Part shown: piece by piece, positions 1,959 to 62,882 of the stretch
Layout: each line of letters opens with the position of its first letter
Numbering within the stretch: position 1 is the first letter of the stretch
Origin: Verrucomicrobiales bacterium
Lineage (GTDB): Bacteria > Verrucomicrobiota > Verrucomicrobiia > Limisphaerales > UBA9464
Direction of reading: 5' to 3'
Length of the DNA stretch: 64,000 nt
Assembly (NCBI GenBank): GCA_027488845.1
Contig: JAIYBC010000055.1
Span: 43,191-107,190 of the forward strand
Translations under genes and position numbers: made by a program
Notes under the pieces: generated by a model
The model's database searches: none
What the model was told of the DNA's origin: nothing
What the model saw: the letters and a program-made list of their open reading frames with translations, nothing else

Positions 1959-2130
1959 GCCGCAGGAATGTGCCCACGGGGCAGGACGCGGCCGGTTCGG
2001 GCCAACTCGGCCTTGGCAGCGGCCGGGTCGCGAGGCAAGGTTTTCGTCGACGGAACCGCGGGGGAGGGAAGGGAAGCTCCGGTGCAGAGCCGGACAACCA
2101 TGTCCCCACCGATGCGGTGCCGACCCCGGG

Positions 2131-2205
2131 GCCAGCTTAGCTCAGCGGCAGAGCAGCGGTTTTGTAAACCGTTGGTCGTCGGTTCAATCCCGACAGCTGG
2201 CTCCA
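2131..2205 (+). tRNA. tRNA-Thr (anticodon UGU), CCA encoded
   Basis: The cloverleaf was folded by hand. Acceptor is GCCAGCT/AGCTGGC and D stem is GCTC/GAGC. Anticodon stem is GCGGT/ACCGT with loop TTTGTAA. T arm is GTCGG-TTCAATC-CCGAC, followed by discriminator T and CCA. Confidence 0.9.
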
Positions 2206-2253
2206 ACTCCGACCCATTCCCTCCGGGAATGGCCACGGCCAGGGCGGGGCGTC

Positions 2254-2976
2254 CTATTCGGACTCCGACATCGTCTTGCCCCAGTGCTGCATGAAGAAGC
2301 GCTTCTCCGTCGGCAGGAGCGTCTCGGCGGTGCCCACGAGCGGACGCAGGGTGGTCATCATCTGCAGGGAAACGAGCAGGAACAGGGCGCACCAGACATG
2401 CAGCGCGGGATTGTTGCGTCCGGGCGCGCCGGGTAGTGCGCGTGTCAGCAGGCGGAATCCGAAGCCGCTCGCCACAAACCACAGCACGAGGTGGATGAAG
2501 CCCATCGCCGCGACCGATGAGGTCGACTGGGAGAAGATCCACGCGATCGGCGCGAGGCTGGCGAGGAGGACGACGTCGAGCGCCAACATTCCGGCCACCA
2601 CGCTGGAGAGGTCGCGGATGCGTATCTCCTGTCCTGTGAGGCAGGAGAACACATAGAGGCTCGGCAGGCACAGGATCGCGGAGAGGGACAGGCCGGCGGC
2701 GATCTTCAACGGGGCCGCCCACCACTGGACGCCGCCCGCGAAGCTGCCGACCACCAGTCCATAGAGGACCGCTCCGAGGAGGGCTGTCGCCAGAAGGGCA
2801 GTCATCAGCGATGAGCTTCCCGAACCCTCCAGGCTGCGTCCGAACCGCTCGGGCTGGCCGAGAAGCAGACGGAACCGGTCACCGATTCCCTCGGGACCGC
2901 TGTGGGACCCGGCGCCGGCAGGCGGCGGGTTGGGAGTGGCGTTCTGACCGCTCGGAGGCACGGGTGGCGGGGTCAT
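2254..2976 (-). CDS. Multi-pass membrane protein of unknown function (paralog-like to the upstream gene)
   Basis: The start at MTPPPVPPSG (2976) overlaps the upstream stop as ATGA. After a Pro/Gly-rich N-terminus there are 5-6 hydrophobic helices (LLATALLGAVLYGLVVGSF..., IAAGLSLSAILCLPSLYVF...). The architecture matches gene 2973..3722. Confidence 0.6.
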   Translation of the reverse strand: MTPPPVPPSGQNATPNPPPAGAGSHSGPEGIGDRFRLLLGQPERFGRSLEGSGSSSLMTALLATALLGAVLYGLVVGSFAGGVQWWAAPLKIAAGLSLSAILCLPSLYVFSCLTGQEIRIRDLSSVVAGMLALDVVLLASLAPIAWIFSQSTSSVAAMGFIHLVLWFVASGFGFRLLTRALPGAPGRNNPALHVWCALFLLVSLQMMTTLRPLVGTAETLLPTEKRFFMQHWGKTMSESE

Positions 2977-3722
2977 GGCGAATGGGGCGTTGTTTTGTCG
3001 TCGGATCGGAAGAGTCGCGAGGTGCTCAGGAAGAACGCCTCGAAGAAGTTCCCGCGGAGGGCGTCGTCGCGCAGGAACTGGACGGCCTGGTTGGGGCGGC
3101 CGAAGAACGGGCGCGCGATCCAGCTCAGTTGGGTGCCCATCACGAGGTTGGCGGCGAGCCACGCGATGAGCAGGCGCCTCGCCGGGGCCGGTGATCCCGC
3201 GAGTGAAGTCAGCACGCGCAGCAGGTGCAGGTTGGCGACGATCCCGGCGAAGGCGATCAGCACCGACTGCGATACCAGGATGGTGGCGTAGGCGTCCTGC
3301 GTCGCGTTCCAGCCCGAATCCGGTCCCGGCAGGTTCCAGACGAGGAACAGCGTCAGCGGACTGAACGCGGCCAGGATGGCGGAGAGCAGGTTGAAGCTCA
3401 GGAGCACCGAGGCGAGGGATTCACGCCAACCGATCTGGATCCCCAACAACGGCGCGAGCAGGGCGTTGAAGAACGAGTTGCCCACCGCGGTGAGCAGGAG
3501 GATCAGGGGGAACTTGATCCCGTTGAAGACGGCCTGCATCGGCGCCCGCCACGTTCCCAACGCGGCGCCGTAGAGCCCGGCGCCGACGCCGATCCATAGC
3601 AGGCTGGTCAGTAGCCAGACCTTCGGGCCGGCAGCCATCCATTGCCTTGCCGCGGCCGGATCCCCGCCCAGGAGCCGGGGAAGCCGCCCGAGATGCTCGG
3701 CAAGGCTGGTTGGCGGGTTCAT
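2973..3722 (-). CDS. Multi-pass membrane protein of unknown function
   Basis: The start at MNPPTSLAEH (3722) lies 29 nt downstream of the ispH stop. The N-terminal 168 codons of ORF 2973..4226 overlap ispH antisense-frame and are Arg/Ser/Pro junk. Helices include VWLLTSLLWIGVGAGLYGAALG and FPLILLLTAVGNSFFNALLAPLL. Confidence 0.65.
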   Translation of the reverse strand: MNPPTSLAEHLGRLPRLLGGDPAAARQWMAAGPKVWLLTSLLWIGVGAGLYGAALGTWRAPMQAVFNGIKFPLILLLTAVGNSFFNALLAPLLGIQIGWRESLASVLLSFNLLSAILAAFSPLTLFLVWNLPGPDSGWNATQDAYATILVSQSVLIAFAGIVANLHLLRVLTSLAGSPAPARRLLIAWLAANLVMGTQLSWIARPFFGRPNQAVQFLRDDALRGNFFEAFFLSTSRLFRSDDKTTPHSP

Positions 3723-3750
3723 GGAGCCGACGTCCGGTGTGTGGCTGGCC

Positions 3751-4629
3751 TCAGGCGGCCTTGCGATGCATTCCCACCGCGGCGGGCATCGCATTTGCGG
3801 AATGTTCTCGGACCGCATTCTCCACCGCCTGGATGGCGGAGTCCGGAGTCGATGTGCCCGCGGTGATGCCGACCGTGTCGGTTTCGAGGAACCAGGCCGG
3901 ATCGATCTCGGAGGCGTCCAAGACGACGTGCACCCGGGAGCATGTCTTCCGGCAGGTGTCGGCGAGACGGCGGGTGTTGTTGCTGTGTGGACCGCCGACC
4001 ACGACCACCACATCGCATCGTTGAGCGAGGTCTTCCGCGGCCTTCTGGCGGTCCTTGGTCGGTTGGCAGACCGTGTCGGTGAAGCGGACCTCGCTGTCCG
4101 GGAAGCGTCGACGGATCCTTTCCACCAGGAGACGGACCCAGGCGATGGGCTGGGTGGTCTGCGCCACCACCCCGAAACGATCCCGGCGGGGCAGGGCGTC
4201 GACGTCTTCCTCCGAGAGCACGACATCGCAGCCCGGGTGGTCCTCGGTCAGTCCTCGGACCTCGACGTGGTTGGCCTGGCCGACCACGACGGGGTGGAAA
4301 CCGGCCGCGACCAGGCGGTCCAGGGCCTGGTGGGCGCGATGGACCAGCGGGCAGGTGGCCTCGGTGACTTGGAAACCCCGATCCCGGAGCGATTGGATCC
4401 GGCGTCCGGAGGCGCCATGGGCGGTGATGATGACCTCGGGTGTGGTGACGTCGCCCGGATCGTGTCGGGTGAGGACTCCCTGTTCCTTCAACCGGTCCAA
4501 CACGGTTTCGTTGTGCACCAGTTCCCCCAGGACCGTCACCGGTCCGTCACCGGCCCTCCGGGCAGCCAGGTTGATGGCATCCCTCACGCCGAAACACATC
4601 CCCATCGATTCCGCCTTCAGGATTCTCAT
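3751..4629 (-). CDS. ispH: 4-hydroxy-3-methylbut-2-enyl diphosphate reductase
   Basis: Supporting motifs are MRILKAESMGMCFGVRDAI, ITAHGAS, ATCPLVHRAH, AQTTQ, DTVCQPTKDRQ and VVVVGGPHSNNTRRL, including the three cluster-ligand Cys. The start was chosen at MRIL (4629); the ORF allows 4680. Confidence 0.9.
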   Translation of the reverse strand: MRILKAESMGMCFGVRDAINLAARRAGDGPVTVLGELVHNETVLDRLKEQGVLTRHDPGDVTTPEVIITAHGASGRRIQSLRDRGFQVTEATCPLVHRAHQALDRLVAAGFHPVVVGQANHVEVRGLTEDHPGCDVVLSEEDVDALPRRDRFGVVAQTTQPIAWVRLLVERIRRRFPDSEVRFTDTVCQPTKDRQKAAEDLAQRCDVVVVVGGPHSNNTRRLADTCRKTCSRVHVVLDASEIDPAWFLETDTVGITAGTSTPDSAIQAVENAVREHSANAMPAAVGMHRKAA

Positions 4630-4688
4630 AAGCACTTTGTGATACAAAGCGGAGATGTCGGCAAGTCGGATCCTGTTCAAAGAACGGA

Positions 4689-4997
4689 TCAGGATTTTCG
4701 GGCTTCGCGGACGATGCGTTCGAGGAGGTCGATGTATTCGACGAAAGCCTTCCTGCCGGCCGGGGTGAGGGAGCAGGTGGTGAGGGGGCGGTTGTCCTTC
4801 TGGGATTTCGCGACGGCGAGGAAACCGGCCTCCTGGAGTGTGCGGAGGTGCGTGGTGAGGTTGCCGTCGGTCATGCCGAGCAGGCCCCGCAGCTCGGTGA
4901 AGGAGAGTTCCGGGGAGGCGGAGAGGGCGGAGACGATGGCGAGGCGTCCCCGTTCGTGGATGACCCGGTCGAGTTGGAGGAACGGCTCCGGGTTCAC
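4689..4997 (-). CDS. Winged-helix transcriptional regulator (ArsR/MarR-like)
   Basis: Only the last ~100 codons of ORF 4689..7226 look real: LDRVIHERGRLAIVSALSASPELSFTELRGLLGMTDGNLTTHLRTLQEAGFLAVAK. A GTG start at 4997 overlaps the upstream stop as GTGA. Confidence 0.7.
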   Translation of the reverse strand: MNPEPFLQLDRVIHERGRLAIVSALSASPELSFTELRGLLGMTDGNLTTHLRTLQEAGFLAVAKSQKDNRPLTTCSLTPAGRKAFVEYIDLLERIVREARKS

Positions 4998-5656
4998 GGA
5001 CTCGGCTTCGTTTCGGTGAGGTGGAGGTAGGCGCCGTAGGCGAGGTGGCCGAGGCCGAAGGTGAGCGTCATCAGGAGGTGGGCGGTCCGGATCGACGGTT
5101 CGACGAACTGCGGATTGGTGGCGGTGAGCGCGCTGAGGAGTCCGGCCACGACGAAGGCCCAACCGAAGAGCCGGATTCCCCGGACCATGAAGAATCCCGC
5201 CGAATGGAGGGCGCAGCCATAGAGCACGAGCCACAGCGGGGGGAGCGACACGGCGATCATGGAGCCTTCCGAGTGGATGTTGACCAGGGGGCCGACGACG
5301 GCGGCGCCGGCGAACACCGGGGGAAGCAGCGCCGAGGTGATCCTCCGGGTGGGAGGCGACCAGAACGGCTCCTGGGAGGCGAACGCCTGACGTCGGACCA
5401 GGGAGAACGCGGTCGCCACGCACAGGATGGCGATGGAGAGCCAGTAGAAGGCGAAGGCACGCGCGTTTTCGGGCACCCAGAAGAGTGCCGCGACGCCGCC
5501 GGCGGTCCCGAGGACGCCCACGGAAGTCATCACCGGCGCCAAGGCCCGGCGGTAGACCGCCGCCCGTTCCATGAGGGTCCGGATCGTGTTCAACTGCGCT
5601 TGTGCCGCGTTCTCGTCCACGGGGGATGACAGTCCGTCTCCCGGACACGCCGTCAA
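4994..5656 (-). CDS. Integral membrane protein of unknown function, translationally coupled to the wHTH regulator
   Basis: There are six predicted hydrophobic segments (VMTSVGVLGTAGGVAALFWV, FAFYWLSIAILCVATAFSLV, and others). The stop overlaps the regulator start codon. Confidence 0.6.
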   Translation of the reverse strand: MTACPGDGLSSPVDENAAQAQLNTIRTLMERAAVYRRALAPVMTSVGVLGTAGGVAALFWVPENARAFAFYWLSIAILCVATAFSLVRRQAFASQEPFWSPPTRRITSALLPPVFAGAAVVGPLVNIHSEGSMIAVSLPPLWLVLYGCALHSAGFFMVRGIRLFGWAFVVAGLLSALTATNPQFVEPSIRTAHLLMTLTFGLGHLAYGAYLHLTETKPSP

Positions 5657-5771
5657 TCACCGACTGGAAAACCCCTAGTGTCACCGGGTTTCCGCGGGAT
5701 TCGGACCTTGACGGGTTGGGTAGGCGATCCCTACCGTCCGCGACCGTAAGGATTTTTCCCGCCGGCAACTG

Positions 5772-5808
5772 GCCGGTACGCGAGAGTCGGTGAACAACCG
5801 GCTTTTTT
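5772..5808 (+). terminator. Weak terminator-like hairpin plus T6 in the nusA leader (possible attenuator)
   Basis: GCCGGT (5772-5777) pairs with ACCGGC (5797-5802) and is followed by TTTTTT (5803-5808). An alternative hairpin, ccggc (5762-5766) with gccgg (5772-5776), competes for the same left arm. It lies 33 nt upstream of the nusA ATG. Confidence 0.25.
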
Positions 5809-5840
5809 GTTACCCCGGTTTTCGGAGGCGAGTGACGACT

Positions 5841-7124
5841 ATGAATGCGGAAATCTTGGCTGTCGTGGAGTATTGGGAGCGGGAGAAGGGCATCGCAAAG
5901 GATGTCCTGCTCGGTGCCATCCAGGAGGCGTTGATGCAGGCCGCGAAGAAGGCGGTCGGCCCGGCGCGCGAACTCCGCGTGTCCATCGACGCCAAATCCG
6001 GCGACATCAAGGCCTGGGCCAAGCTCATGGTCGCCGACCGCGTCATCTCGAAGCACGACCAGATCAGCGTCTTCGACGCCCGCCGCGCCGGCTTCCCGGA
6101 GGCCAAGATGGGCGACGAGATCGAGGTCGAGGTCACGCCGACCGGCTTTGGACGGATCGCCGCCCAGTACGCCAAGCAGGCGTTGGCCGCCCAGCTTCGC
6201 AAGGCGGAGAAGGCCATGGTCTACGAGGAGTTCAAGGACCGCGTCGGCGACATCGTCAACGGCACCGTCCGGCGGTTTGAACGCTCCGACGTGATCATGG
6301 ACCTCGGCAAGTTCGAGGCGATCATGCCCAACCGGGAACGCGTCCCGACCGAGGAGTACCAGATCGGCGAACGGATCCGCTGCTACGTCAAGGCGGTCGA
6401 ACAGACCCCGCGCGGTCCCGAGATCATCCTCTCCCGCGCCGATCCCAATTTCGTCATCAAGCTGTTCAAGGTCGAGGTTTCCGAGATCGGGGACGGGACG
6501 ATCGAGATCAAGGGCATCGCCCGCGAACCCGGTTTCCGCACCAAGCTGGCGGTCTACTCCCGCGATTCGAAGGTGGACCCCGTCGGCGCGTGCGTCGGTC
6601 TTCGCGGCCAGCGCGTGAAGAACATCGTCCGCGAGCTGAACAACGAGAAGGTGGACATCATCCCGTGGTCTCCGGACATCCGGCGCTATGTGGAAAACGC
6701 CCTCGCCCCGGCCAAGCTGAAGACCTTCGAGGTCGACGAGGCCCGGAAGCGCGTGCTGGTCCACACGTCGACGGACCAGTTGTCCTTGGCCATCGGCAAG
6801 CGGGGCCAGAACGCGAGGCTGACTTCGCGCCTGACCGGCTGGAACATCGACATCGAGGCCGAGCAGTCGGTTCTGCCCGGTTTCGACCAGAAGGTGGCCG
6901 TGGCCGTGCGCGATTTCGCGTCCGTTCCCGGAATCACCGAGGCACAGGCCTTGATCCTGGTGACGACGGGTTTCCACAGCCTCGAAGACGTGATCCAGCA
7001 GGCTTCTGCCGAGGATCTGGCCGGAATGGACGGGATCGGCGAAGCCGCCGGGACCATCCTGGAGGCGATCCGCGGCGAGCTGGCGCGGAGGGCGGCCACC
7101 GGCGAGGTGCCGGCGGGGGCCTGA
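5841..7124 (+). CDS. nusA: Transcription termination/antitermination factor NusA
   Basis: The start is MNAEILAVVEYWEREKGIAKDVL. An S1 domain (GDIVNGTVRRFERSDVIMDLG) and KH domains (RTKLAVYSRDSKVDPVGACVGLRGQRVKNIVREL, SLAIGKRGQNARLTSRLTGWNIDI) are present. It is followed by infB. Confidence 0.95.
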   Translation: MNAEILAVVEYWEREKGIAKDVLLGAIQEALMQAAKKAVGPARELRVSIDAKSGDIKAWAKLMVADRVISKHDQISVFDARRAGFPEAKMGDEIEVEVTPTGFGRIAAQYAKQALAAQLRKAEKAMVYEEFKDRVGDIVNGTVRRFERSDVIMDLGKFEAIMPNRERVPTEEYQIGERIRCYVKAVEQTPRGPEIILSRADPNFVIKLFKVEVSEIGDGTIEIKGIAREPGFRTKLAVYSRDSKVDPVGACVGLRGQRVKNIVRELNNEKVDIIPWSPDIRRYVENALAPAKLKTFEVDEARKRVLVHTSTDQLSLAIGKRGQNARLTSRLTGWNIDIEAEQSVLPGFDQKVAVAVRDFASVPGITEAQALILVTTGFHSLEDVIQQASAEDLAGMDGIGEAAGTILEAIRGELARRAATGEVPAGA

Positions 7125-49347: not shown

Positions 49348-52023
49348 ATGTCCATGAAAGTCCGGATGTCGCGCTGGTCCGCCCTGCTGGCCTCGCTGCT
49401 GTCCCTGGCCGTCCTCGCGGACCAGCCCGGGGCCGCAACCAACCCTCCCGTCCACCTGGGGACATCGGACAGCGGGGTCCTGCCCTCGAAGTTCACGGCG
49501 CCCAAGACGCTGGCGCCCGAGGATTCCAACGGCGAGATCGCCAAGCTGGCCGCCCGGATGATCGAGCGCTCCCACTTCCTCCGGCGCGAGTTCGACGACG
49601 GCGTCTCCGAGCAGTTCTTCGAACGCTTCTTCGAGGCGCTCGACCCGCAGAAGCTCTATTTCCTGCAGTCCGACTACGAGGAGTTCCTCCCGCTGAAGAA
49701 GCAGCTGGACGACCTGACGGTCCGCCGCGGCGACACGCGTCCGGCCTATGACGTCTTCAACCGCTACCTGCAGCGCATCGACCAGCAGTACGCCCTGGTG
49801 ATGGAACAGCTGAAGGAGGAGCGCTTCGAGTTCGACCGCGACGTCCGGATCCTGCTGAACCGGAAGGATGCGCCGCGTCCGAAGTCGGTCGATGAGGCCC
49901 GTGGTCTTTGGAAGGAACGTCTGCGGTTCGAATACCTCTCCGAGAAGCTCAGCCGCGACTTCGACAGTCTTTCCACGAACCTGTGGACGAAGCTGACGAC
50001 CGAACCCGATCCGGAGCCCGAGGTGGAGCTCCCGGCGATCCCCGCGGCTGGCGACGCCCCGTCGACGGCCGCGACCAACAAGGTCGCCACCGCCAAGCCG
50101 GTGCCTGCCCCGGCGCCGAAGCCGTTGATGGTGGGTGGCAAGAAGGTGGCCGACCTGCATCTCGCCGGCCTGGAGAAGCGCCTCGGCGAACTGCTCAACA
50201 CCAACCGGGCCGCCGAGTTCGCACGCCTCGCCGAGCAGGGCCGTTTCACCTCCGTCTCCGACGTCCGGGCCTTCGTGGAGAAGAACCTCCCCGAGGACCG
50301 GCACCAGGACATCGTGAAGACCCTCACCCGCCGTTACAACCGGGTGATGCGGAACCTCAAGCAGTTCGAGCCCAAGGAGGTCCTCCAGTTCTACCTCGAC
50401 GCCCTCGCCCACTCCTACGATCCGCATTCCAACTACTTCGGACCGCGTGAGGAGGACGCCTTCGCGATGTCCATGACCCTGTCGTTCGTGGGCATCGGCG
50501 CGGTCCTGACCACCGAGGACGGCTATGCGATGATCAGCGAGATCAAGCCCGGCAGCCCGGCGGAGAAGTCCAAGTCGCTGAAGGCCGGCGACAAGATCGT
50601 CTCCGTGGCGCAGGACCGACAGCCCCCGGTCGACGTGATCGACGAGAAGCTGCAGAAGGTGGTGGAGCAGATCCGCGGGCCGAAGGGCACCAAGGTGACC
50701 CTGACCTACATCCCGAAGGGCGCGGATCCGAGCACCCGGAAGTCGGTGACGATCACCCGGGATACCATCCCGTTGGAGGACCAGGAGGCGAAGGCGAAGC
50801 TGGTGTTGCTGCCCGGCTTGGACGGCAAGACCAACCGCATCGGCGTGATCGACCTTCCCGCCTTCTACAGCGGTGCCATCGGCGGCGGCGGCGCGACCAA
50901 GAGCCCGACCGCGGACGTGGCCAAGCTGCTCCGGAAGCTCATGTCGGAGAACGTCGACGGCGTGGTGCTCGACCTGCGTCGCAACGGCGGCGGTTCCCTC
51001 GAGGAATGCGTCAACCTCACCGGCCTCTTCATCAAGACCGGCCCGGTGGTGCAGGTCGTGAACTCCCTCGGCCAGCACCGCATCCTCGAGGACGAGGATC
51101 CGGACGTGCTCTACGAGGGACCGCTGGTGGTGTTGACCAGCCGCTTCAGCGCCTCGGCTTCCGAGATCCTTGCGGGTGCGCTTCAGGACTACGGCCGCGC
51201 GATCGTGGTGGGTGACAGCGCGACCCACGGAAAGGGAACCGTGCAGAACCTGCAGGCGCTCGATCCCTACTACCGCGGCCAGGGCAAGCCCGGCCAGGTG
51301 AAGGTGACCATCAGCAAGTTCTACCGGCCTTCCGGTTCCTCCACGCAGCTCAAGGGCGTCGTCCCGGACATCGTCCTGCCGAGCGTGAACAACTACGCGG
51401 AGATCGGTGAATCCGCGATGAGCAACGCGCTGCCGTGGAACACCATCAGCCCGGTGCGCTACGACCACTACACCAGGGTCCCCGCGCTGCTTCCCGAGCT
51501 GCGTCGCCGATCGGACGAGCGGGTCGGTGCCGACCGTGACTTCTCCTACATCCGCGAGGACATCGAGCGCTTCCGCAAGCAGCTGGCCGACCGGACGGTT
51601 TCGTTGAACGAGTCGAGCCGGCTGGCCGAGATGCGGGCCGACAAGGAGCGTGCGGCCAAGCGGCGCGAGGAGATCGAATCCCGGAACGAACGGGAACCGC
51701 TCACCTACAAGCTCACCCTGAAGGACGCCGGCAAGCCGGGTCTGCCCGAGCCGGAGAACTCCAAGCCGTTGATCGCGGCGACCAAGCGCGACGAGCGGAC
51801 CCTTCGCAGCGGCGCGGGCCGCGAATCCGCCTCCGCCTCGGAGAACCGCAAGAAGGAGAAGACCGCGGAAGGTGAAGCCGAAGAGGATGCCGAAGAAGAG
51901 GGCGTGGCCGCGGACGTGAACCTCCGCGAGGCCCAGCGCATCCTCATCGACTTCGTGCAGCTGTCGCGCGGCCAGAAGGGGCTCGCCGGCGCGCCGAAGA
52001 CGGTCGATCCGAAGGCCAACTGA
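49348..52023 (+). CDS. prc: Tail-specific (C-terminal processing) protease, S41 family, Prc-like
   Basis: The signal peptide and Prc N-terminal helical domain are present (FFERFFEALDPQKLYFLQSD). The PDZ domain carries IKPGSPAEKSKSLKAGDKI. The S41 core carries GVVLDLRRNGGGSLEE and SRFSASASEILAGALQD. Confidence 0.85.
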   Translation: MSMKVRMSRWSALLASLLSLAVLADQPGAATNPPVHLGTSDSGVLPSKFTAPKTLAPEDSNGEIAKLAARMIERSHFLRREFDDGVSEQFFERFFEALDPQKLYFLQSDYEEFLPLKKQLDDLTVRRGDTRPAYDVFNRYLQRIDQQYALVMEQLKEERFEFDRDVRILLNRKDAPRPKSVDEARGLWKERLRFEYLSEKLSRDFDSLSTNLWTKLTTEPDPEPEVELPAIPAAGDAPSTAATNKVATAKPVPAPAPKPLMVGGKKVADLHLAGLEKRLGELLNTNRAAEFARLAEQGRFTSVSDVRAFVEKNLPEDRHQDIVKTLTRRYNRVMRNLKQFEPKEVLQFYLDALAHSYDPHSNYFGPREEDAFAMSMTLSFVGIGAVLTTEDGYAMISEIKPGSPAEKSKSLKAGDKIVSVAQDRQPPVDVIDEKLQKVVEQIRGPKGTKVTLTYIPKGADPSTRKSVTITRDTIPLEDQEAKAKLVLLPGLDGKTNRIGVIDLPAFYSGAIGGGGATKSPTADVAKLLRKLMSENVDGVVLDLRRNGGGSLEECVNLTGLFIKTGPVVQVVNSLGQHRILEDEDPDVLYEGPLVVLTSRFSASASEILAGALQDYGRAIVVGDSATHGKGTVQNLQALDPYYRGQGKPGQVKVTISKFYRPSGSSTQLKGVVPDIVLPSVNNYAEIGESAMSNALPWNTISPVRYDHYTRVPALLPELRRRSDERVGADRDFSYIREDIERFRKQLADRTVSLNESSRLAEMRADKERAAKRREEIESRNEREPLTYKLTLKDAGKPGLPEPENSKPLIAATKRDERTLRSGAGRESASASENRKKEKTAEGEAEEDAEEEGVAADVNLREAQRILIDFVQLSRGQKGLAGAPKTVDPKAN

Positions 52024-54675: not shown

Positions 54676-55983
54676 TCAGCCGTTGTCCGGTCGCCCTTCG
54701 TTCCGCAGGTAGACGGTCTGGGTGGGGAAGGCGAACTCGAGACCGGCTTCGTCGAAGCGTTGTTTCACCTGGAGATTCAGATTCTCCAAGGCCTCGGTGA
54801 AGACCTTCCAGTCGGTTGTGCCCACCAGGAGAATCACCTCGATGTTCAGGCTGGAAGCGTCATACCGGTTGAAGGTGACGAAGACGTCCTTGGTCAATGG
54901 GTGCCCGCCGAAGATCCCGCGGAGCAGCGCGGTCGCGGACTTCATGCGGTCGGCGGTGGTGCCGTAGGTCAGCCCGTAGTTGAGGACCGTCCGGATGAAC
55001 GGGCGGGCCGAAATGTTGATGACCGTGTTGTTGCCCACGGACTTGTTGGGGACGGTGATGAGGTGTCCGTCGAGGTTGCGGACCCGCGTGGCCCTCAGGC
55101 CCATCTCCTCGACCGTTCCGTCCACGCCGGCGAGCTGGATCCGGTCGCCGACCTTGAACGGCTTGTCGACGAAGACCGCGACGGTGCCGAAGAGGTTGGA
55201 CACGGTGTCCTGCGCCGCGAGGCCGAGCGCGAGGCCGAGCACGGACACGGATCCGAGCAGGGCCGTGATGTTCACGCCCACGTTGCTCAGGAGCGTCAGC
55301 ACCGCGACGGTGACGAGGACCGCCTTGGTCAGCTTGCCGACGAGCAGGAGGAACTGGTCGTTGAAGGCCTTGTCGCCGGACGGACGGGGCTGTTCCCGCC
55401 AGAAGCCGATGACGAAGTCGATGACCCTGAGGCAGACCACGATCAGGGCGACGGCCAGTGCGATGAGGGCCAGCTTGGAGAGCGCCCCTTCCAGCCATTC
55501 GGGCCAGTCGAAGACCTGGAGCCCGATGTGGAAGAGCACGACGAAGGTCACCATCTTCACGGGGCCGTCCGCGAGGGCGACGAGCACGTCGTCCCAACGG
55601 GTCGGCGTCTTCTCGGCCCAGGCCTTGAGGCGGCCCTTGATCAGCCAGTCGAGGCACCGGGAGGCGTAGAAGGCGAGGAGGATGTAGATCAGCGACGCCA
55701 GGTATTCCCACCTGGGAACCCCCATGAGCGGCGGCTGCAGGACCGAGACTCCGTCGAGTCCGAAGGACAGCTCGGAGCGGTGGGTCTCGATGAAGTCGCG
55801 GCTGACCAGCTGCTGGGCGAGTTCCGTGGCCTGGGTCGCGGCCCGGACGACGTTGGTGCCCGCGACCGGCGCGGCCGGTGCGTCGGCGGCGAGGGCTCCC
55901 GACCAGATGCACCAGACCAGCAGCGAGGCGAACCCGGCGGTCCAGGCGAACAGGGCGTGTTGGGGACGAATGCGAAGTCTCAT
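54676..55983 (-). CDS. Mechanosensitive ion channel (MscS family)
   Basis: The pore helix and beta domain are LLGSVSVLGLALGLAAQDTVSNLFGTVAVFVDKPFKVGDRIQLAGVDGTVEEMGLRATRVRNLDGHLITVPN. Confidence 0.85.
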   Translation of the reverse strand: MRLRIRPQHALFAWTAGFASLLVWCIWSGALAADAPAAPVAGTNVVRAATQATELAQQLVSRDFIETHRSELSFGLDGVSVLQPPLMGVPRWEYLASLIYILLAFYASRCLDWLIKGRLKAWAEKTPTRWDDVLVALADGPVKMVTFVVLFHIGLQVFDWPEWLEGALSKLALIALAVALIVVCLRVIDFVIGFWREQPRPSGDKAFNDQFLLLVGKLTKAVLVTVAVLTLLSNVGVNITALLGSVSVLGLALGLAAQDTVSNLFGTVAVFVDKPFKVGDRIQLAGVDGTVEEMGLRATRVRNLDGHLITVPNKSVGNNTVINISARPFIRTVLNYGLTYGTTADRMKSATALLRGIFGGHPLTKDVFVTFNRYDASSLNIEVILLVGTTDWKVFTEALENLNLQVKQRFDEAGLEFAFPTQTVYLRNEGRPDNG

Positions 55984-56057
55984 CGGCGGTCGGGGAATAA
56001 GTCAGGAAGGGCCGCGGGCGCAAGGGCTCGATGGCCGGAGGTGGTCCATCGAACAGC

Positions 56058-59000
56058 TCAATGGGCGGCCAGGGCCGCACCGTCCCATCCGCCTCCCAGC
56101 GCCTTCACCAACTGCACGGTCGCGACGCGGCGTTGGCCTTGGATCCGCGCGCTCTCCCGTCGGACGGCCAGCGCGGTGCGGTCGGCGTCGATGACCTCCA
56201 GTTGGCTCGAGGCCCCCGCGTCGTGGCGTGCCCGGGCCAGTTCCACGGCACGTCCCGCGGCCTTGTCCGCGGCCTCGGCCGCGACGGCCTGGTCCTGGAG
56301 GGATTTCAGGCCGGACAGGTTCTCCTGCACCTCGGCGAAGGCGACGAGGACCTGTTGGCGGTAGGCGCTGACCGCCTCGTCGTAGCCGGCCCGCGCTCGG
56401 GCGAGGTCGCTCCGGTTCCGGCCGCCCTGGAAGAGCGGCAGCGTGAGGGTCGGTCCGATCGCCCACGTCCGGCTGTCCCACTTGAAGAGGGTGTCCATGT
56501 CGGCGCTCAGCACCCCACCCGAGCCGGTCAGGCGGAGGGAAGGGAAGAAGGACGCCTTGGCGATTCCGATGCGGCTGTTCGCCGCGGCAAGCCGCCGCTC
56601 GGCGCGGGCGACGTCGGGGCGTCGCTCGAGCAGGTCCGAGGGCAGGCCTGCGGGAACGGCCGGAACCTCCGGGTGGTAGTGGCCCGTGTCCGCGATGTGG
56701 AATCCCGGCGCCGGCACGCCGACCAGGACCGCGATGGCGGTTTCCAGCGAAGCGCGCGAGCGGTCGAGTCCGGCCAATTCCACCTCCGCGGAGGCCCGTT
56801 CCGTCTCCGCCCGCGCCAGGTCGAGCTCCGTGGCGGAACCGGCGTCGAGCCGTGACCGGACGATGGCCAGGGCCTCGGTGCGCAGGCGGAGCGTGTCGCG
56901 GACGATCCCCCGCTGGTTGTCGGTGCTGCGCAGGGTGAAGTAGGTCTGGGCGAGTTCCGACTGCACGGAGAGCAGCACGTTGGCGAAGTCCGCCACCCCC
57001 GCCTGCGCCTCCGACCGGGCTCCCTCGAAGGAGCGGCGGACGCGTCCCCAGAGGTCGATCTCGTAGCTGAGGTCCACGGGCACGCGCAGGGTGTTGAACG
57101 ACGGCGAGCCGAAGTTGGGGAACTGGTTCGGCGAAAGCCGTTCGCGCCGCCAGGAGGGATCGAAGCTCAACGCCGGGAAGAACTCGCTGCGGGCGAGCCG
57201 GGCGTAGGCGCGGGCCTGGTCGATGCGCGCCAGCGCCCCGAGGACCTGCTGGTTGTTGGTGTTGGCGGCCGCCATGAGGCGGTCCAGCTCGGCATCGGCG
57301 AACAGCGTCCACCAGGCGCCCTTGGGCAGCGTGTCTTTCGGTTCGCCCGCCTTCCAGGAGCCCGTGTTCTCGAAGGCGGCTGGAACGGAGTTGGTCGGAC
57401 GCCGGTAATCGGGTCCGACGGTGAGCGAGCCGGCCTCGGCGCGGTCGGGGAAACCGGCAAGCAGCAGGGCCAGGGTCGTCGCGGCGGCGACGGCCTTGGC
57501 AGCGGGACCGACCGCTGCCGATTTGCGTTGGAGCCGGGCGGTCATCTTCATGATCACCACGTAGAAGACCGGCGTCAGGAAGAGCCCGAAGAAGGTCACG
57601 CCGATCATGCCGGCGAACACGGCCACGCCCATCGCCTGGCGCATCTCCGATCCGGCACCGGTGGAGACCACCAGCGGATAGACGCCGGCGATGAAGGCGA
57701 TGGAGGTCATCAGGATCGGGCGCAGGCGGAGCTTGCAGGCCTCGAGCGCGGCCTCGACCGGTCCGAGTCCCTCGTGCTGCTTCTCGCGGGCGAACTCGAC
57801 GATCAGGATCGCGTTCTTGCAGGCGAGTCCCACGAGAACGATCAGGCCGATCTGGGTGAAGATGTTGTTGTCCGAACCCTTGAGCAGCACGCCGACCATG
57901 GCGCTGAGCAGGGTCATCGGGACGATGAGGATGATCGCCAGGGGAAGGCTGAGGCTTTCGTACTGCGCGGCGAGGACGAGGAACACGAGCAGGATGCAGA
58001 GCGGGAAGATGTAGGCCGCGGTGTTGCCGGCGATCCGCTGCTGGTAGGTGAGCTCGGTCCATTCGTAGGCCATGCCCGGGGGCAGGGACTTGCGGACGAG
58101 GTCCTCGATGAACCGTTCGGCCTGGCCGGAGCTGTATCCCGGTGCCGGCGCGCCGTTGATCTCGGCGGCGGGGTAGCCGTTGTAGCGCATGACCCGGTCG
58201 GGACCGAACGAGTCGCGGACCTTCACCAGCGTGCCGAGCGGGACCATCCGGCCCTGTTCGTTGCGGACGCGCAGGCGGCTGATGTCGTCGGCTCCGTCGC
58301 GGAACGGGGCGTCCGCCTGGGCCACGACCTGGAAGGTGCGGCCGAAGCGGTTGAAGTCGTTCACGTACAGCGAGCCGAGGTAGATCTGCATCGTCTCGAA
58401 CAGCGACCCGAGCGGCACGCCGAGCGACTTGGCCTTCACGCGGTCCACGTCGAGGTCGATCTGGGGGACGTTGATCTGGTAGGTGGAATAGACGCCCTGG
58501 AGGACGTTGGTCTGGTAGGCTTGGCCGATGGCGCCCCAGGTCGCTCCGAAGAGCGCCTCGGGTCCGAGGTTGGCGCGGTCCTCGACGAACAGCTTGAAGC
58601 CGCCGCCGGTGCTGAGGCCGTTCACGGCCGGCGCGCCGATCACGATCATCCGCGCCTCCTGGATCTCGGCGAGGGCCTGGTAGAGCTTGCCGATGATGGC
58701 GTCGGCGCTCTTGTCGGGCGTCGTGCGCTTCTCGAAGTCCTCGAGCGTGATGAACGCGATGCCGGAGTTGGGGCTGGCGGTGAAGCCGTTGGGCGAGAGG
58801 CCTGGGAAGGCCACCGAGGCGGCCACGCCGGGAACCTTCAGCGCGAGGTCGCTCATGCGGCGGATCACGGCGTCGGTGCGGTCGAGCGACGCGGCGTCGG
58901 GCAGCTGGGCCACGCAGATGAGGAACTGCTTGTCCTGGTTCGGTATGAAGCCCGCGGGAACCGCCTGGAAGACGCGTCCGGTGAGGACGACGAGACCGGC

Positions 59001-60659
59001 GTAGACGAAGAGGGCCACGGCGCTGACGCGGATGACGCGGGCGACGGCGGCCGAATAGCGGCGCGAGGCCCAGTCGAAGAAGCGGTTGAACGGACGGAAG
59101 AACCAGCCGAACACGGCGTCGAGCACGCGCGTGGGGGCGTCCTTCGGGGCGTGGTGGTCGCGGAGCAGCAGCGCGGACAGCGCGGGGGAGAGCGTCAGGG
59201 AGTTGAAGGCCGAGATCACCGTCGAGATGGCGATGGTGATGGCGAACTGCTTGTAGAACATGCCGCTGAGGCCGGAGATGAAGGCGGTCGGGATGAACAC
59301 CGCGCAGAGCACCAGGGCCGTCGCCACGATCGGACCGGTCACCTCGTTCATCGCCTTCCGCGTGGCGTCCACGGGCGAGAGGCCGAGGGCGATGTTCCGC
59401 TCGACGTTCTCCACCACCACGATGGCGTCGTCGACGACGATGCCGATGGCCAGCACCAGGCCGAAGAGCGAGAGCGCGTTGATCGTGAACCCGAGCCACG
59501 CCATCACCGCGAAGGTGCCGACCAGCGAGACCGGCACCGCCGCCAGCGGGATGATCGAGGCGCGCCAGGTCTGGAGGAACACCAGCACCACGACCACCAC
59601 CAGGGCGATCGCCTCGAACAGCGTGTGGATCACGGCGTCGATGGACTTGTCCACGAAGACCGTCGGATCGTAGACGACGGCGTAGTCCAGTCCGGCCGGG
59701 AAGTTGCGCTTGAGCGTCTCCATGGCCTCGCGGACGTCGCGGGAGAGCTTGAGGGCGTTGCTGCCGGGCTGCTGGAAGACGGGGATGGCGACGGCGGACC
59801 TGTTGTTGAGCAGCGAGCGCAGGGCGAACTCGCCGGCGCCGAGCTCGATGCGGGCGACGTCGCGCAGCTGCACGGTTTCGCCGTGGGCACCGCGCTTCAC
59901 GATGATGTCGCCGAACTCGGCCTCGGTCACGAGGCGGCCCCGGGTGTTGATCTGGAGTTCGAACGCGGCCGGGGAGGACACCGGCTGCTGGCCGATGGCG
60001 CCGGCGGCGACCTGCACGTTCTGTTCGCGGATCGCGTTCACCACGTCGCCCGGCGTGAGCCCCTTGGAGGCGACCTTGTCGGGATCGAGCCACACCCGCA
60101 TGGCGTAGTCGCCCGATCCGAAGATCTGCACCTGGCCGACGCCGTCGACGCGGGCCAGGACGTCCTTCACCTGGAGCGTGGCGTAGTTGCGGATGAAGAT
60201 GTCGTCGTAGGAGGCGTCGGGGGAGAACAGGTGCACCACCATGGTGAGGTCCGGCGTGGACTTGATGGTGAGCACGCCGAGGCGGCGGACCTCCTCGGGC
60301 AGCTTCGGCAAGGCCTGGGAGACGCGGTTTTGGACCAGCACCTGGGCCTGGTCGATGTCGGTGCCGAGCTTGAAGGTCACCGTGAGCGTCATCACGCCGT
60401 CGCTGGTGGCCTGGGAGAAGGTGTAGAGCGAGTTCTCGACGCCGTTGAGCTGCTGTTCCAGCGGGACGGCGACGGTCTCGGAGATGGTCTTCGGATTGGC
60501 GCCGGGATAGACGGCGCGGACGACGATCTGGGGCGGGACCACCTCGGGGTACTCGCTGATCGGCAGCCGGTACATCGAGATGAGGCCGACGATGAAGATC
60601 AGGATCGAGAGGACCCCGGCGAAGATGGGTCTCTTGATGAAGAAGTGGGAGAAGTTCAT
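56058..60659 (-). CDS. Multidrug (HAE1/AcrB-like) RND permease fused in frame to a NodT-type outer membrane factor
   Basis: Residues 1-1036 form a full RND permease, from [22 protein letters not shown] to ...[12 protein letters not shown]. Residues 1037-1533 form a full OMF: a signal-peptide-like stretch [34 protein letters not shown], then GPDYRRP and two OEP repeats. No stop or frameshift lies between them. Confidence 0.8.
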
Positions 60660-60686
60660 GGGGGACCGGGGCGGGACGGCCTGGGA

Positions 60687-61862
60687 TCAGCGGGCGGGGG
60701 AATTGGTGGCCTGGACCGGGGCGACCGGTTGGCCCGGGAACTGGATGCGGAGCTGGCCGTTCACCACCACCCGGTCGGTCGGGGTGAGCCCGGAGGCGAC
60801 GAGGCGCTTGCCGCCGGAGAGCGGGCCGGTCGTGACGAACTTCTTCTCCACCGTGTTGGAGGCCGAGACGGTGTAGAGGAACTTGCGGCTCTGTTCGGTT
60901 CCCAGGACGTCGTCGGGAACGAACAGCGCGGTGGTCTTCGGTCCGGAGGGAAGGCTGACGCGGGCGAACAGGCCGGGGACGAAACGCTGGTCCGGATTCG
61001 CCAGCACGGCGCGCAGCACGAGGCTTCCGGTCGAGGGATCCAGTCGGTTGTCGAGCGACTCCACCGTGCCCACGTGGGGATATCCGGTCTCGTCGGCCAG
61101 ACCGACCCCGACCTCGATCCGCCCCTTGGCGTCGACGGGCAGGACGCCGTCGCGCCGGAAACGGTTCAGGCGGAGCAACACCGACTCGTCAAGGTCGGCG
61201 TACACGTACACCGGGTCGACCGAGACCACGGTGGTCAACAGGGTGGTGGCGCCGTCCACGCCGGAGACGTTGTTTCCGGGCGTGACCAGCGCGCGGCTGA
61301 CGCGACCGTCGATCGGAGACCGGATCTCGGCGTACTCGACGTTGAGCCGGGCCGTCACCAGCGCGGCCTCGGCCACGGCGACGGAGGCCTTCGCCTCGGA
61401 CAGGCGCGTGCGACGCTGGTCGGCCTCCTCCACGGAGATGGCCTTGGTCTTCAGCATCTGCTCGGCGCGCGCGGCATCGCGGTCCGCCTGCGCGGCCCGG
61501 GTCTTCGCCGACTCCAGGTCGGCCTCGGCGCGTTGGAGGGCCGCCTGGAAGGGGCGCGGATCGATCACGAACAGGACGTCCCCCTTGCGAACCGTCTGAC
61601 CGGCTTGGAACCGCACCTCGGCGAGGAAGCCTGAGACGCGCGCCCGGATCTCCACCGAGTCCACGGCGTCGATTCGGCCCGTGAGGGTCTCGGTCGGGAT
61701 GTACTCCCGTGATTCCGGGGCCGCGACCGTGACCGTGGCCGGAGGTGCTGCGGTGGGGGCCGATGCGGCCCCGGCGCCTTCCTTCGAACAACCGGCAAGC
61801 CCGATCAGGGCGGCGGTGATGGCGGTGGTGAACGGGGTTGGCAGGGGCTTGGGACGGTTCAC
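60687..61862 (-). CDS. Efflux RND periplasmic adaptor (AcrA/MexA-like lipoprotein)
   Basis: The lipobox is LIGLAGCS. The lipoyl/hairpin/barrel layout includes [36 protein letters not shown]. Confidence 0.9.
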
Positions 61863-61899: not shown

Positions 61900-62172
61900 T
61901 CAGGCGGCGAAGGCGGAGGAATCCGCCCCCAACAGTCGTTGTTGTCGCAGATGCCAACGGCGCAGGCGCAGCAGCGTCTCCTCGAACAGGGACGGGAAGA
62001 CCAACTCCGGCACCTCGGTGCTCCAGGCGAGGGCTTCCGCCTCGGCCCGTGCGTGCCGCACCAGATCCTCGGGCAGCCCCGACCTCAGGGCGGGATCGCC
62101 CAAGGGGTGCAGCGCAAACGCCCTCGGACGACGCGATGACGGCACTTTCGGAAGGGAACGGAACGGGACCAT
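61900..62172 (-). CDS. Small hypothetical protein between tetR and the adaptor gene
   Basis: The start was chosen at MVPFRS (62172) because the first 21 codons of ORF 61900..62235 are occupied by an operator-like palindrome. The C-terminal half reads RHARAEAEALAWSTEVPELVFPSLFEETLLRLRRW. Coding status is uncertain. Confidence 0.35.
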   Translation of the reverse strand: MVPFRSLPKVPSSRRPRAFALHPLGDPALRSGLPEDLVRHARAEAEALAWSTEVPELVFPSLFEETLLRLRRWHLRQQRLLGADSSAFAA

Positions 62173-62206
62173 GGACTGCAGGAGATTCGAGGTGGAGAAC
62201 GTTGTT

Positions 62207-62221
62207 AACTGACTGGTCAAC
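62207..62221. promoter_or_regulatory. Operator-like palindrome ACTGACTGGTCAA (putative TetR site in front of the efflux genes)
   Basis: The core TGACTGGTCA (62210-62219) is a near-perfect palindrome. It shares 12 of 13 positions with the site at 62918-62932. It lies 56 nt downstream of the tetR stop and upstream of the adaptor gene. Confidence 0.4.
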
Positions 62222-62276
62222 ATCCTATCACCCAAATTTGCTCCCGCAAGGGGGCGTTGGGTGAAAAGTTCGCAGC

Positions 62277-62882
62277 CTATCGGGACGGTGGAAGGATTCC
62301 GCCGAGGCGACGAACGGATTCCTCAAGTGGATCGAGGACCGCCAGATCGTTGCGGATGCGGGCCTGCTGCAGCATGCCGATGGTCAGTGCCTGAAGGCTG
62401 GAGGCGACCTGATGCGGGTCACCCTGCGCGGCCAATCCCGACGATTGGGCCTCCCGGACGGTGGATTCCAGGTAACGGAGGTCGCGCTGGAAGATGTCCT
62501 CGCAGACATGGCGTAGCCTCTCATCGATTCCAGCCATCTCCGTTCCGATGCTGGAAATCGGGCAACCACATATCCTTCCGTACTTTGCGGCGATTTCCTG
62601 TTGGTGTTTCCGGATCAGGCCGCACCAGTCCATGAGGCGCTGGACGGGAGTGCTTTGGAGGGAAAAGACCGCGTCGTACTGGAGCTTCCATTCCTGCCAT
62701 CCCGCCTCGTAGGCGGCGACCGCCAACTCGGACTTCGACGGGAAGAAGTGGTAGAAGCTGCCCTTGTTGACGCCGGCCCGTTCGCAGATCTGGTCCACGC
62801 TGACGCCCTCGAAGCTTTGGGTCCAAATGAGGTCCAATGCGGCGTCGAGCAGACGTTGTCGGGAATCGCTGGGGCGGGCCAT
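62277..62882 (-). CDS. TetR/AcrR-family transcriptional regulator
   Basis: The N-terminal HTH is RQRLLDAALDLIWTQSFEGVSVDQICERAGVNKGSFYHFFPSKSEL. Confidence 0.9.
   Translation of the reverse strand: MARPSDSRQRLLDAALDLIWTQSFEGVSVDQICERAGVNKGSFYHFFPSKSELAVAAYEAGWQEWKLQYDAVFSLQSTPVQRLMDWCGLIRKHQQEIAAKYGRICGCPISSIGTEMAGIDERLRHVCEDIFQRDLRYLESTVREAQSSGLAAQGDPHQVASSLQALTIGMLQQARIRNDLAVLDPLEESVRRLGGILPPSR

Follow-up and report, generated by a model that had tools for sequence, protein, structure and literature searches.

A conserved reading frame joining an RND permease to an outer membrane factor, and its predicted processing at an internal signal peptide

In the textbook view, RND pumps and outer-membrane channels are separate gene products that belong to two different membranes. 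A locus from a Verrucomicrobiales bacterium raises the question of how a cell might use the two when they are encoded as a single chain. Within the window, by which we mean the whole 64,000-nucleotide stretch of contig JAIYBC010000055.1 (GCA_027488845.1) that was analysed, one open reading frame runs from an RND permease into an outer membrane factor (OMF) without a stop codon. Literature searches returned no published description of a natural RND-OMF fusion, in agreement with an earlier note on this DNA whose author knew of no described example. Here, we describe the composition of the reading frame, its conservation, and the anatomy of the junction, and we weigh the possible fates of the encoded chain.

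Two complete modules in one efflux cluster

The fusion is encoded on the minus strand at 56058..60659 and comprises 1533 codons, from an ATG start to a stop at 56058..56060, with no internal stops in the 1533-aa translation. The earlier note had described an uninterrupted ORF containing a complete RND protein and a complete NodT-type OMF, and the ORF listing, the translation, and the Pfam and NCBIfam profiles all bear this description out. An exact-match look-up of the 1533-aa protein returned no record. Residues 1-1036 (57552..60659, minus strand) form an RND permease module of the HAE1 type that is MexF/OqxB-like and has 12 TM helices. The Pfam profile ACR_tran spans residues 3-1036 and is covered from position 1 to 1020 of 1021 with 1169 bits. 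Among the NCBIfam profiles, RND_permease_1 (NF000282) spans residues 4-1037 with 1433 bits against a cutoff of 1250, TIGR00915 scores 1147.6 against a cutoff of 940, and the best family matches are OqxB/RND_permease_1. The columns of D410, D411, and K948 are invariant among 67 homologues, and we take these residues to be the counterparts of the AcrB proton-relay residues D407, D408, and K940 on TM4 and TM10. No stop codon follows the tail of this module, and the ORF simply runs on into the OMF.

The predicted mature OMF, which would be non-lipidated, corresponds to residues 1077-1533 (56061..57431, minus strand). Two OEP repeats lie downstream of ACR_tran (Pfam), and the outer_NodT profile TIGR01845 spans residues 1081-1524 with 375.6 bits against a cutoff of 210. 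In searches of the PDB, the mature chains of OprJ, OprM, CusC, and OprN align with this part from one end to the other, the matches including OprJ at 3e-63 and OprM at 5e-60 over the whole mature chain. An AF2 prediction for residues 985-1533 gives long coiled helices and beta strands, with pLDDT values of 90-97 in the helical core. Both modules are conserved, with a mean column identity of 76% in the alignment of 67 homologues.

The neighboring genes, all on the minus strand, fit a pump of this kind. A TetR-family regulator (62277..62882; Pfam TetR_N and TetR_C_13) stands at the head of the cluster, and a TetR gene occupies the equivalent position in six related loci (L081, L082, L084, L087, L088, and L089). 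Between the regulator and the adaptor lies a small conserved ORF of 111 aa (61900..62235) that has no match in Pfam but aligns with ORFs of 103-107 aa at the equivalent position in L084, L087, L088, L090, and L091, all sharing the motif LALNEAEALAWxT.YP.L.F. The periplasmic adaptor (MFP; 60687..61862) is MexE/OqxA-like, scoring 252.7 bits against a TIGR01730 cutoff of 94.9 with MexE and OqxA as the best NCBIfam matches, and its translation carries the lipoprotein signal ..AALIGLAGC↓SKEG. Every locus examined has an adaptor gene ahead of the fusion. A tripartite RND efflux pump is the best explanation for a cluster that reads TetR, small ORF, adaptor, and RND::OMF.

Conservation of the fusion

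An unusual ORF in a metagenome assembly might be an assembly or sequencing artefact, or a nonfunctional pseudo-fusion left by the recent loss of a stop codon, and the separate genes found in the close relatives L079, L091, and L011 could be read in the same way. The comparative evidence makes this extremely improbable. A 1533-aa ORF with 99% identity and an unchanged gene order around it is present on an independent MAG contig (L081, GCA_027483345.1), and its cluster at 90% comprises six full-length members of 1533 aa, which come from NCBI, JGI, and ENA assemblies. Gene order is also kept on other independent contigs, and one family member is found on 14 contigs. The earlier note had proposed a search for single polypeptides that carry both ACR_tran and OEP domains. 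All of the best 120 database matches run the full length of the fusion and carry both domains (1533-1610 aa, 64-99% identity, 99-100% query coverage), and more divergent fusions were found as well. Few of these 120 records carry an organism name, and those that do are mostly from Verrucomicrobiota. Linkers in the family take 15 different lengths between 43 and 61 aa, all of them in frame. We regard the 1533-codon ORF as confirmed and the fused arrangement as conserved in many bacteria. The earlier suggestion that the fusion is adapted rather than a fresh error was sound, given the 120 fused matches and the divergent fusions in other phyla. The outcome that the note named as refuting, separate genes with a normal LAGC lipobox in all close homologs, is not what is seen: L091, L079, and L011 are indeed unfused, but this does not turn the fusion into a one-off.

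Unfused relatives are nevertheless instructive. Three of them (L001, L004, and L009) nest inside the fused clade, and the fusion is therefore dispensable. The RND module of the window is also 64-67% identical to unfused proteobacterial MexF-like pumps. A scan of GTDB species genomes gave, among the matches listed, mostly unfused proteobacterial operons and yields no fused-to-unfused ratio.

The divergent fusions extend the arrangement to other phyla. They include the P0146 cluster (Acidobacteriota, Bryobacteraceae), P0164 (Kiritimatiellota B12222, WFB35000.1), the P0181 cluster (Muribaculaceae), P0143, and P0144. Like the window protein, they possess a full ACR_tran domain, a basic tail, a hydrophobic segment, a processing site, and two OEP repeats; all six of the divergent proteins tested have the complete ACR_tran domain and both repeats. 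Unlike the window protein, they have a lipobox (..SGC, ..TGC, or ..GGC) as the processing site. In every divergent fusion inspected (P0142-P0146, P0162, P0164, P0181, P0202, and P0232), a lipobox ..[GS]C followed by GP.Y stands at the position of the predicted cleavage site of the window family, whereas the only members of that family with a lipobox Cys at this position are P0008, P0017, and L007. A lipobox is meaningful only when it is processed by Lgt and Lsp, and its presence in the divergent fusions implies signal peptidase II and a lipidated OMF. The RND parts of these proteins are only 29-52% identical to that of the window, which makes independent fusion events probable, and RND-OMF fusions have probably arisen more than once in different phyla. 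P0164 lies on a contig of 4.43 Mb; fusions of this kind thus also occur outside fragmentary assemblies, a point that speaks against an artefact.

The junction and the fate of the chain

The junction consists of a basic RND cytoplasmic tail, a hydrophobic segment, small-x-Ala↓Gly, and x-L-T-V-GPDY, in that order. The tail comprises residues 1037-1055 (57495..57551, minus strand). The RND module had been thought to end right after its last TM helix; instead, the RND family profiles reach residues 1043-1053, and unfused relatives have a tail of the form ..LMKLGxKKK.. before their stop codon, so an ordinary cytoplasmic tail has been kept. Its net charge is +5 in the window and a median of +4 across the family, and it would double as the n-region of the predicted internal signal. 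The hydrophobic segment, residues 1056-1070 (57450..57494, minus strand), is the h-region of that predicted signal and a potential 13th TM helix. Here, the highest Kyte-Doolittle score over 15 residues is 2.08, for a stretch ending 6 residues before the site AEA↓G, compared to a family median of 2.2 ending about 5 residues before the site. Across 121 homologues, the segment is poorly conserved in sequence yet always apolar. The c-region and predicted signal peptidase I site follow at residues 1071-1076 (PDRAEA; 57432..57449, minus strand), with the cut expected after A1076. The junction sequence is as the earlier note quoted it, AEA↓G falling at residues 1074-1076 and 1077, with A1074 at -3 and A1076 at -1. 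Ala occupies -1 in 116 of 121 sequences and Gly occupies +1 in 114 of 121, while -3 is A, S, T, V, L, or G. The sequence thus offers the charged n-region, apolar h-region, and small residues at -3 and -1 of a Sec signal peptide. The AF2 prediction confirmed the OMF fold and shows a disordered linker with a helix at 1056-1068, but confidence is low at the junction (pLDDT 41-57), including the coil at residues 1044-1055. The sole terminator-like match in the linker mRNA, a hairpin at 57496..57521, is on the antisense strand, falls below the shuffle expectation, and is absent in L081; we treated it as chance.

The predicted site can be placed relative to known mature OMFs. The GPDY motif of the window OMF aligns with residues 4-7 of mature OprM, and in solved lipoprotein OMFs, Cys1 of the mature chain is 2-3 residues before the (G)PDY motif. 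No Cys is found near the OMF site, where AEA↓G stands in place of a NodT-type lipobox. Phe1070 (codon TTC at 57450..57452) had been taken for a mutated lipobox Cys. This reading fails, since the position equivalent to the Cys is approximately L1079, nine residues downstream of F1070, and absence of the Cys is common in the nearest free-standing OMFs. Unfused verrucomicrobial OMFs commonly lack the Cys and have signal peptides of the signal peptidase I type. A motif rule assigns to at least 36 free-standing OMFs among the nearest relatives a short N-terminal signal peptide ending at A↓G-x-LTVGPDY (for example P0314, MKKLILNLAFVAAALPATA↓GLLTVGPDY). The rule may admit a few truncated gene calls, but more than a dozen of these proteins have classical MK-start n-regions. 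The internal AxA↓G site of the fusion is at the same position as the N-terminal cleavage site of these free-standing orthologues.

These features lead us to favor, with reasonable confidence, a polyprotein in which signal peptidase I cleaves an internal signal peptide and so releases a non-lipidated OMF. The 12-TM RND module would insert into the inner membrane with its basic C-terminal tail left in the cytoplasm. Segment 1056-1070 would then act as an internal Sec-type signal peptide in an N-in/C-out orientation, and the OMF moiety would be threaded into the periplasm. Cleavage after A-E-A1076 would free an OMF with the N-terminus GSLTVGPDY..., which would trimerise and insert into the outer membrane, while the tail and, as a 13th helix, the signal segment would stay with the RND protein. 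The advantage would likely lie in obligatory 1:1 synthesis of two homotrimeric partners, with the OMF delivered at the site of its pump. The earlier note had named three ways in which such a product might work, namely internal initiation, cleavage of an internal signal after export, and a 13th TM tether; the second appears to fit best, given the conserved AxA↓G and its coincidence with the site of the free-standing orthologues.

The tether would leave the chain uncleaved, with the hydrophobic segment holding the OMF to the pump as a 13th TM helix. The apolar run is TM-like in most family members, with a median of 25 residues in fusions compared to 16 in the window and 13 in free-standing signal peptides. 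This length resembles a TM anchor more than a cleaved signal and is a counterpoint to cleavage, the support for which comes from sequence. Long h-regions can also hinder signal peptidase I. We still consider an uncleaved chain highly improbable because of geometry and conservation. The site and GPDY are just 5 residues apart, too few to let an uncut chain occupy both membranes. OprM is anchored to the outer membrane by its N-terminal Cys (PMC4790312). In solved OMFs, the lipid anchor in that membrane lies 3-4 residues away from GPDY, and a tethered OMF could not reach the membrane. The sequence of the hydrophobic segment is not conserved, whereas the strict small-x-Ala↓Gly, or the lipobox Cys elsewhere, has no rationale unless the chain is processed.

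Internal initiation would have the OMF made separately from the ATG at 57551 (Met1037) as a precursor whose N-terminal signal peptide is long, and would reduce the fused chain arising by read-through to a minor or discarded product. Met1037 is nearly invariant in the family (at least 90% in the 67-homologue alignment), which leaves room for such a start, and precisely this start has been chosen in the NCBI annotation of L090 and of similar records. The earlier note had seen no obvious Shine-Dalgarno sequence here. That stands insofar as none is conserved across ten loci, but in the window GGTGATC, which is complementary to the 3' end of 16S rRNA, does precede the ATG. In the window clade, GGTGATC is accounted for by Val-Val-Ile codons, and the 9-12 nt upstream of the ATG are not conserved (GTCACCCTG in L082, GTCACGTTG in L087, and GTCGTGCTG in L007). 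An equivalent Met is present in the stop-terminated tails of the unfused RND genes L001, L004, L012, and L091, which makes Met1037 a feature of the RND tail. P0045 and P0067 have Leu at this position, and in P0143, P0144, and P0162 the stretch from TM12 to the lipobox lacks a Met. Such a start would also imply an n-region of 19-39 aa, and a sigma-70 consensus scan, a weak test for this phylum, found no promoter-like site inside the ORF. No stop codon separates the modules, so every ribosome that finishes the RND part makes the fused chain, and processing is needed regardless. On balance, separate synthesis of the OMF seems unlikely. OMFs that start with MKLGxKK looked like separate genes, but L090, the single case examined, proved to be a continuous fusion of 1553 aa, and its short gene call is an annotation choice.

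Under cleavage, the fusion might in addition be an assembly device, a rather unlikely extension. RND trimerisation would present three OMF moieties in cis, and cleavage would hand a pre-organised, dedicated trimer to its own pump, so that channel biogenesis would be templated by the inner-membrane partner. If so, the retained 13th helix might be a new element of the pump subunit.

Relation to known systems

A widespread natural RND-OMF polyprotein with several probable origins would add a new route of biogenesis to a machine that has been studied in depth. In such a natural system one could study how internal signal peptides act after a 12-TM protein, how pump and channel are coupled stoichiometrically, and how an OMF is targeted without a lipid anchor. 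Current annotation is inconsistent: some fusions are named only "RND permease", and at least one record, that of L090, starts its gene call at the internal Met, covers only the OMF, and leaves 3.1 kb without a call. Counts of OMFs and RND proteins in Verrucomicrobiota, Acidobacteriota, and related groups can be wrong as a result.

Among the closest systems are the free-standing, non-lipoprotein OMFs of Verrucomicrobiota such as P0314 in locus L091. These are 53-61% identical to the window OMF, share its predicted mature N-terminus G-x-L-T-V-GPDY, and occur in a matching operon context with the small ORF and the adaptor. They differ in being separate genes, each with a start of its own and a short signal peptide of classical type. 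In L091, the operon is truly unfused, and the stop of the RND gene is approximately 200 nt upstream of the OMF. The three-gene operons of the MexEF-OprN/OqxAB type have the same components in the same order, with a TetR-type regulator alongside. In the window, by contrast, a single ORF runs through RND and OMF without an intervening stop, the predicted OMF signal peptide is internal with the RND tail in place of an n-region, and AEA↓G replaces the lipobox Cys.

For the proposed mechanism, the nearest likeness is FbcH of Bradyrhizobium japonicum, reportedly described by Thony-Meyer and Hennecke in 1989-1991 as a cytochrome b-c1 polyprotein. In FbcH, a polytopic inner-membrane protein is followed in one ORF by an internal signal peptide, and cleavage frees a second, periplasm-facing protein of the same complex. 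The likeness would be one of mechanism and not of homology, as the proteins are unrelated, although the window protein has the sequence prerequisites for such processing. Both products of FbcH stay in the inner membrane, whereas the OMF of the window would have to travel to the outer membrane.

A single reading frame for pump and outer membrane factor

The fusion occupies 56058..60659 on the minus strand, where the ORF listing of the window gives 1533 codons beginning with ATG, and its translation contains no internal stops. Both the RND permease (RND) and the NodT-type outer membrane factor (OMF) are complete modules. The Pfam ACR_tran domain spans residues 3-1036, matching profile positions 1-1020 of 1021, and is followed by two OEP repeats. 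NCBIfam assigns the N-terminal part to RND_permease_1 (1433 bits against a cutoff of 1250), with OqxB closest, and the C-terminal part to outer_NodT (TIGR01845; residues 1081-1524; 375.6 bits against a cutoff of 210). The entire mature chains of OprJ, OprM, CusC, and OprN align with the OMF part, and an AF2 model of residues 985-1533 shows, as expected, long helices together with beta strands; its pLDDT is 90-97 for the helical core and falls to 41-57 across the linker. Two long ORFs in other frames run across the gene, at 56002..60093 (minus strand, 1363 aa) and 57528..61634 (plus strand, 1368 aa). These were rejected as genes and regarded as the usual stop-poor alternative frames, the DNA here being 65-73% G+C.

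Directly upstream lies the gene for a MexE/OqxA-like adaptor (60687..61862, minus strand; NCBIfam) whose translation carries a genuine lipobox, AALIGLAGC|SKEG. A TetR regulator gene (62277..62882, minus strand; Pfam) is furthest upstream in the cluster, and between it and the adaptor gene is a small conserved ORF (61900..62235, minus strand) for which no Pfam match was found. Counterparts of this ORF were located at homologous loci on other contigs (L084 3317..3637, L087 1397..1711, L088 1403..1714, L090 274..597, and L091 709..1023). At about 104-111 aa, with the common motif LALNEAEALAWxT.YP.L.F, they occur in fused and unfused operons alike, and the small ORF may belong to these efflux operons as a fourth component. 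The fusion is immediately followed downstream by a gene for an MscS-type mechanosensitive channel (54676..55983, minus strand; Pfam), which is syntenic in loci L081 and L089 but not in relatives further removed. A tail-specific protease of 891 aa (domains Peptidase_S41, PDZ, TSP_NTD, and DUF3340) is encoded at 49348..52023 (plus strand), some 4 kb away from the efflux cluster, with no evident link to the fusion.

Conservation and origins of the fusion

We have hardly any doubt that the fusion is real and conserved. An independent MAG contig (L081, GCA_027483345.1) carries a 1533-aa ORF that is 99% identical, with the order TetR-adaptor-fusion-MscS kept, and the 90% cluster of this relative has six full-length members originating from NCBI, JGI, and ENA. 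The earlier note had proposed a database search for single chains with both ACR_tran and OEP domains, and the outcome confirms that the fusion is not a one-off: the best 120 matches to the full-length protein are all fusions of 1533-1610 aa with both Pfam domains, 64-99% identity, and 99-100% query coverage. The few of these that carry organism names are mostly labeled Verrucomicrobiales, Verrucomicrobia, or Pedosphaera. The order regulator-small ORF-adaptor-fusion is repeated on long contigs of other loci. Across 121 sequences, the distance from TM12 (..TPVFY) to the OMF motif GPDY takes 15 distinct lengths of 43-61 aa and is in frame every time. Together, the independent assemblies, the full-length matches, and these in-frame linkers exclude an artefact or a recent accident. 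Gene tables do not always reflect the arrangement. At L090 (GCA_035765895.1, DASTWL010000023.1), the NCBI-derived table gives for the uninterrupted fused ORF of 1553 aa (1893..6554) only an 'efflux transporter outer membrane subunit' of 517 aa that starts at an internal Met, leaving about 3.1 kb that encode the RND without any product; P0361, P0363, P0370, and P0136 apparently follow the same pattern.

Profile-free HMMER, run with residues 900-1300 on 1.84 billion representatives, returned more full-length fusions of 1484-1541 aa, with 28-34% identity across the junction. Of these, all six that were tested carry two OEP repeats and a complete ACR_tran module. Named members belong to Acidobacteriota/Bryobacteraceae, Muribaculaceae, and Kiritimatiellota, the last through protein WFB35000.1 of bacterium B12222, encoded on a 4.43-Mb contig. 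The RND part from the window is nearer to unfused proteobacterial pumps (64-67% identity) than to the RND parts of these divergent fusions (29-52%), which argues that the fusions are polyphyletic; the divergent ones (P0142-P0146, P0162, P0164, P0181, P0202, and P0232) seem to have arrived at this architecture independently. Placed by their RND parts in a rough NJ tree, built with no support values, the fused proteins form one large Verrucomicrobial clade, within which the unfused loci L001, L004, and L009 are nested and near the base of which lie unfused Prosthecobacter and Chthoniobacteraceae loci. This pattern suggests that one old fusion in the Verrucomicrobial lineage was occasionally followed by fission or loss.

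The junction and the signal peptides of free-standing relatives

TM12 is followed by ..V-x-L-M-K-L-G-x-K-K-K.. and a variable Pro/Ala-rich stretch (net charge median +4). The earlier note quoted the junction in agreement with the window translation but ended the RND right after TM12. RND family profiles reach residues 1043-1053, and the segment after TM12 is therefore a normal RND tail rather than the start of an OMF precursor. After the basic tail comes an apolar segment (median of the best 15-residue hydropathy window, 2.2) that ends about five residues ahead of the predicted site. Counting back from GPDY in the 121 sequences, position -8 carries A, S, T, V, L, or G and position -7 a variable polar residue; Ala stands at -6 in 116 and Gly at -5 in 114, followed by x-L-T-V. 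Judged by sequence, this is a small-x-small pattern as in a signal peptidase I site, reading AEA|G in the window (residues 1074-1076|1077). A 10-bp inverted repeat in the linker-coding region (57496..57521, GGCAGCGG..CCGCTGCC) is not kept in the 99% relative and is probably a chance occurrence.

Key evidence for how this site may be used is the sequence comparison with unfused relatives. Searching with only the OMF part yielded free-standing genes whose OMFs are 53-61% identical to it. By a motif rule, at least 36 of these have short N-terminal signal peptides whose ends coincide with the predicted site of the fusion (for example, MKKLILNLAFVAAALPATA|GLLTVGPDY and MKAFTLNLFGLFAALPALA|GPLTVGPDY), a set in which a few may be truncated gene calls and more than 12 have classical MK-start n-regions. 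Because the signal peptides of orthologues end there, the predicted cut would fall where a real N-terminal signal peptide ends, and the RND tail would in effect take the place of the OMF's own Met-Lys n-region. Locus L091 is truly unfused, with an adaptor, a 1062-aa RND whose last codons before the stop encode ..LMKLSSKKKPAPEQG.., a gap of about 200 nt, and an OMF. The RND-OMF spacer of unfused relatives contains a recurring, putatively coding sequence, MKPIFKLQVDFAST..W..IRR.. (L091 5540..5737), which is also found at the N-termini of P0327, P0328, P0330, P0331, P0338, P0372, and P0392; gene calls present it either as an ORF of 65 aa or as an extension of 60-70 aa at the N-terminus of the OMF, and it has no Pfam match.

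Eleven other free-standing OMFs have a lipobox, ..GC|AVGPDY, and those at further unfused Verrucomicrobial loci (Prosthecobacter, Brevifollis, Akkermansiaceae, L009, and L079) have signal-peptidase-I-type signals without Cys. The earlier note had read F1070 as a mutated lipobox Cys and its loss as a sign of adaptation. Neither idea holds up. Mature Cys1 of solved lipoprotein OMFs sits 2-3 residues ahead of (G)PDY, its equivalent in the window is about L1079, and LAGF resembles LAGC by coincidence; among the nearest free-standing relatives, many have OMFs that are not lipoproteins. The organism does use lipoproteins, since its adaptor carries LAGC.

Processing of the fused chain

The best-supported reading, and one we consider fairly probable, is a polyprotein that is cleaved at an internal signal. 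The RND module would enter the inner membrane, the hydrophobic segment would export the OMF moiety, and signal peptidase I would cut after A1076, sending a non-lipidated OMF to the outer membrane and leaving a 13th helix with the RND. One caveat to cleavage is that the apolar run before the predicted site has a median of 25 residues in fusions versus 13 in free-standing signal peptides (16 in the window), and the longer run may be what an internal signal requires when it follows a TM helix. An uncleaved chain with a tethered OMF is contradicted by both geometry and the conserved site. The lipid anchor of OprM places the N-terminus of NodT-type OMFs at the outer membrane (PMC4790312), and only five residues separate the predicted site from GPDY; an uncut chain would therefore be unable to span both membranes.

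The inspected divergent fusions share this design but carry a lipobox where processing is expected (..FFSGC|TQGPNY, ..LLTGC|AAGPNY, ..LSGC|MMGPNY, and ..FLGGC|MSVGPDY), and a lipobox inside a chain would be pointless unless processing took place at it. Several of them have no Met at all from TM12 to the Cys, which counts against the earlier suggestion that internal initiation at ATG 57551 (Met1037) yields the OMF. That Met is at least 90% conserved and GGTGATC stands immediately 5' of the ATG in the window, but unfused RND tails have the same Met and the nucleotides upstream of it vary among ten loci. Records that start an OMF at the internal Met are annotation choices, as the continuous L090 ORF illustrates, and the fused chain would be made anyway because there is no stop codon.

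In the literature searched, which included a 2015 review of OprM and a large review on tripartite systems from 2021, we found no natural RND-OMF fusion described. Automated annotation has noted both domains, as in the JGI name 'HAE1 family protein/NodT family ... outer membrane factor'; the sequences are thus public, yet the arrangement appears to be undescribed. The nearest known mechanistic precedent is the Bradyrhizobium FbcH cytochrome b-c1 protein, which, like the proposed product of the fusion, is a polyprotein.
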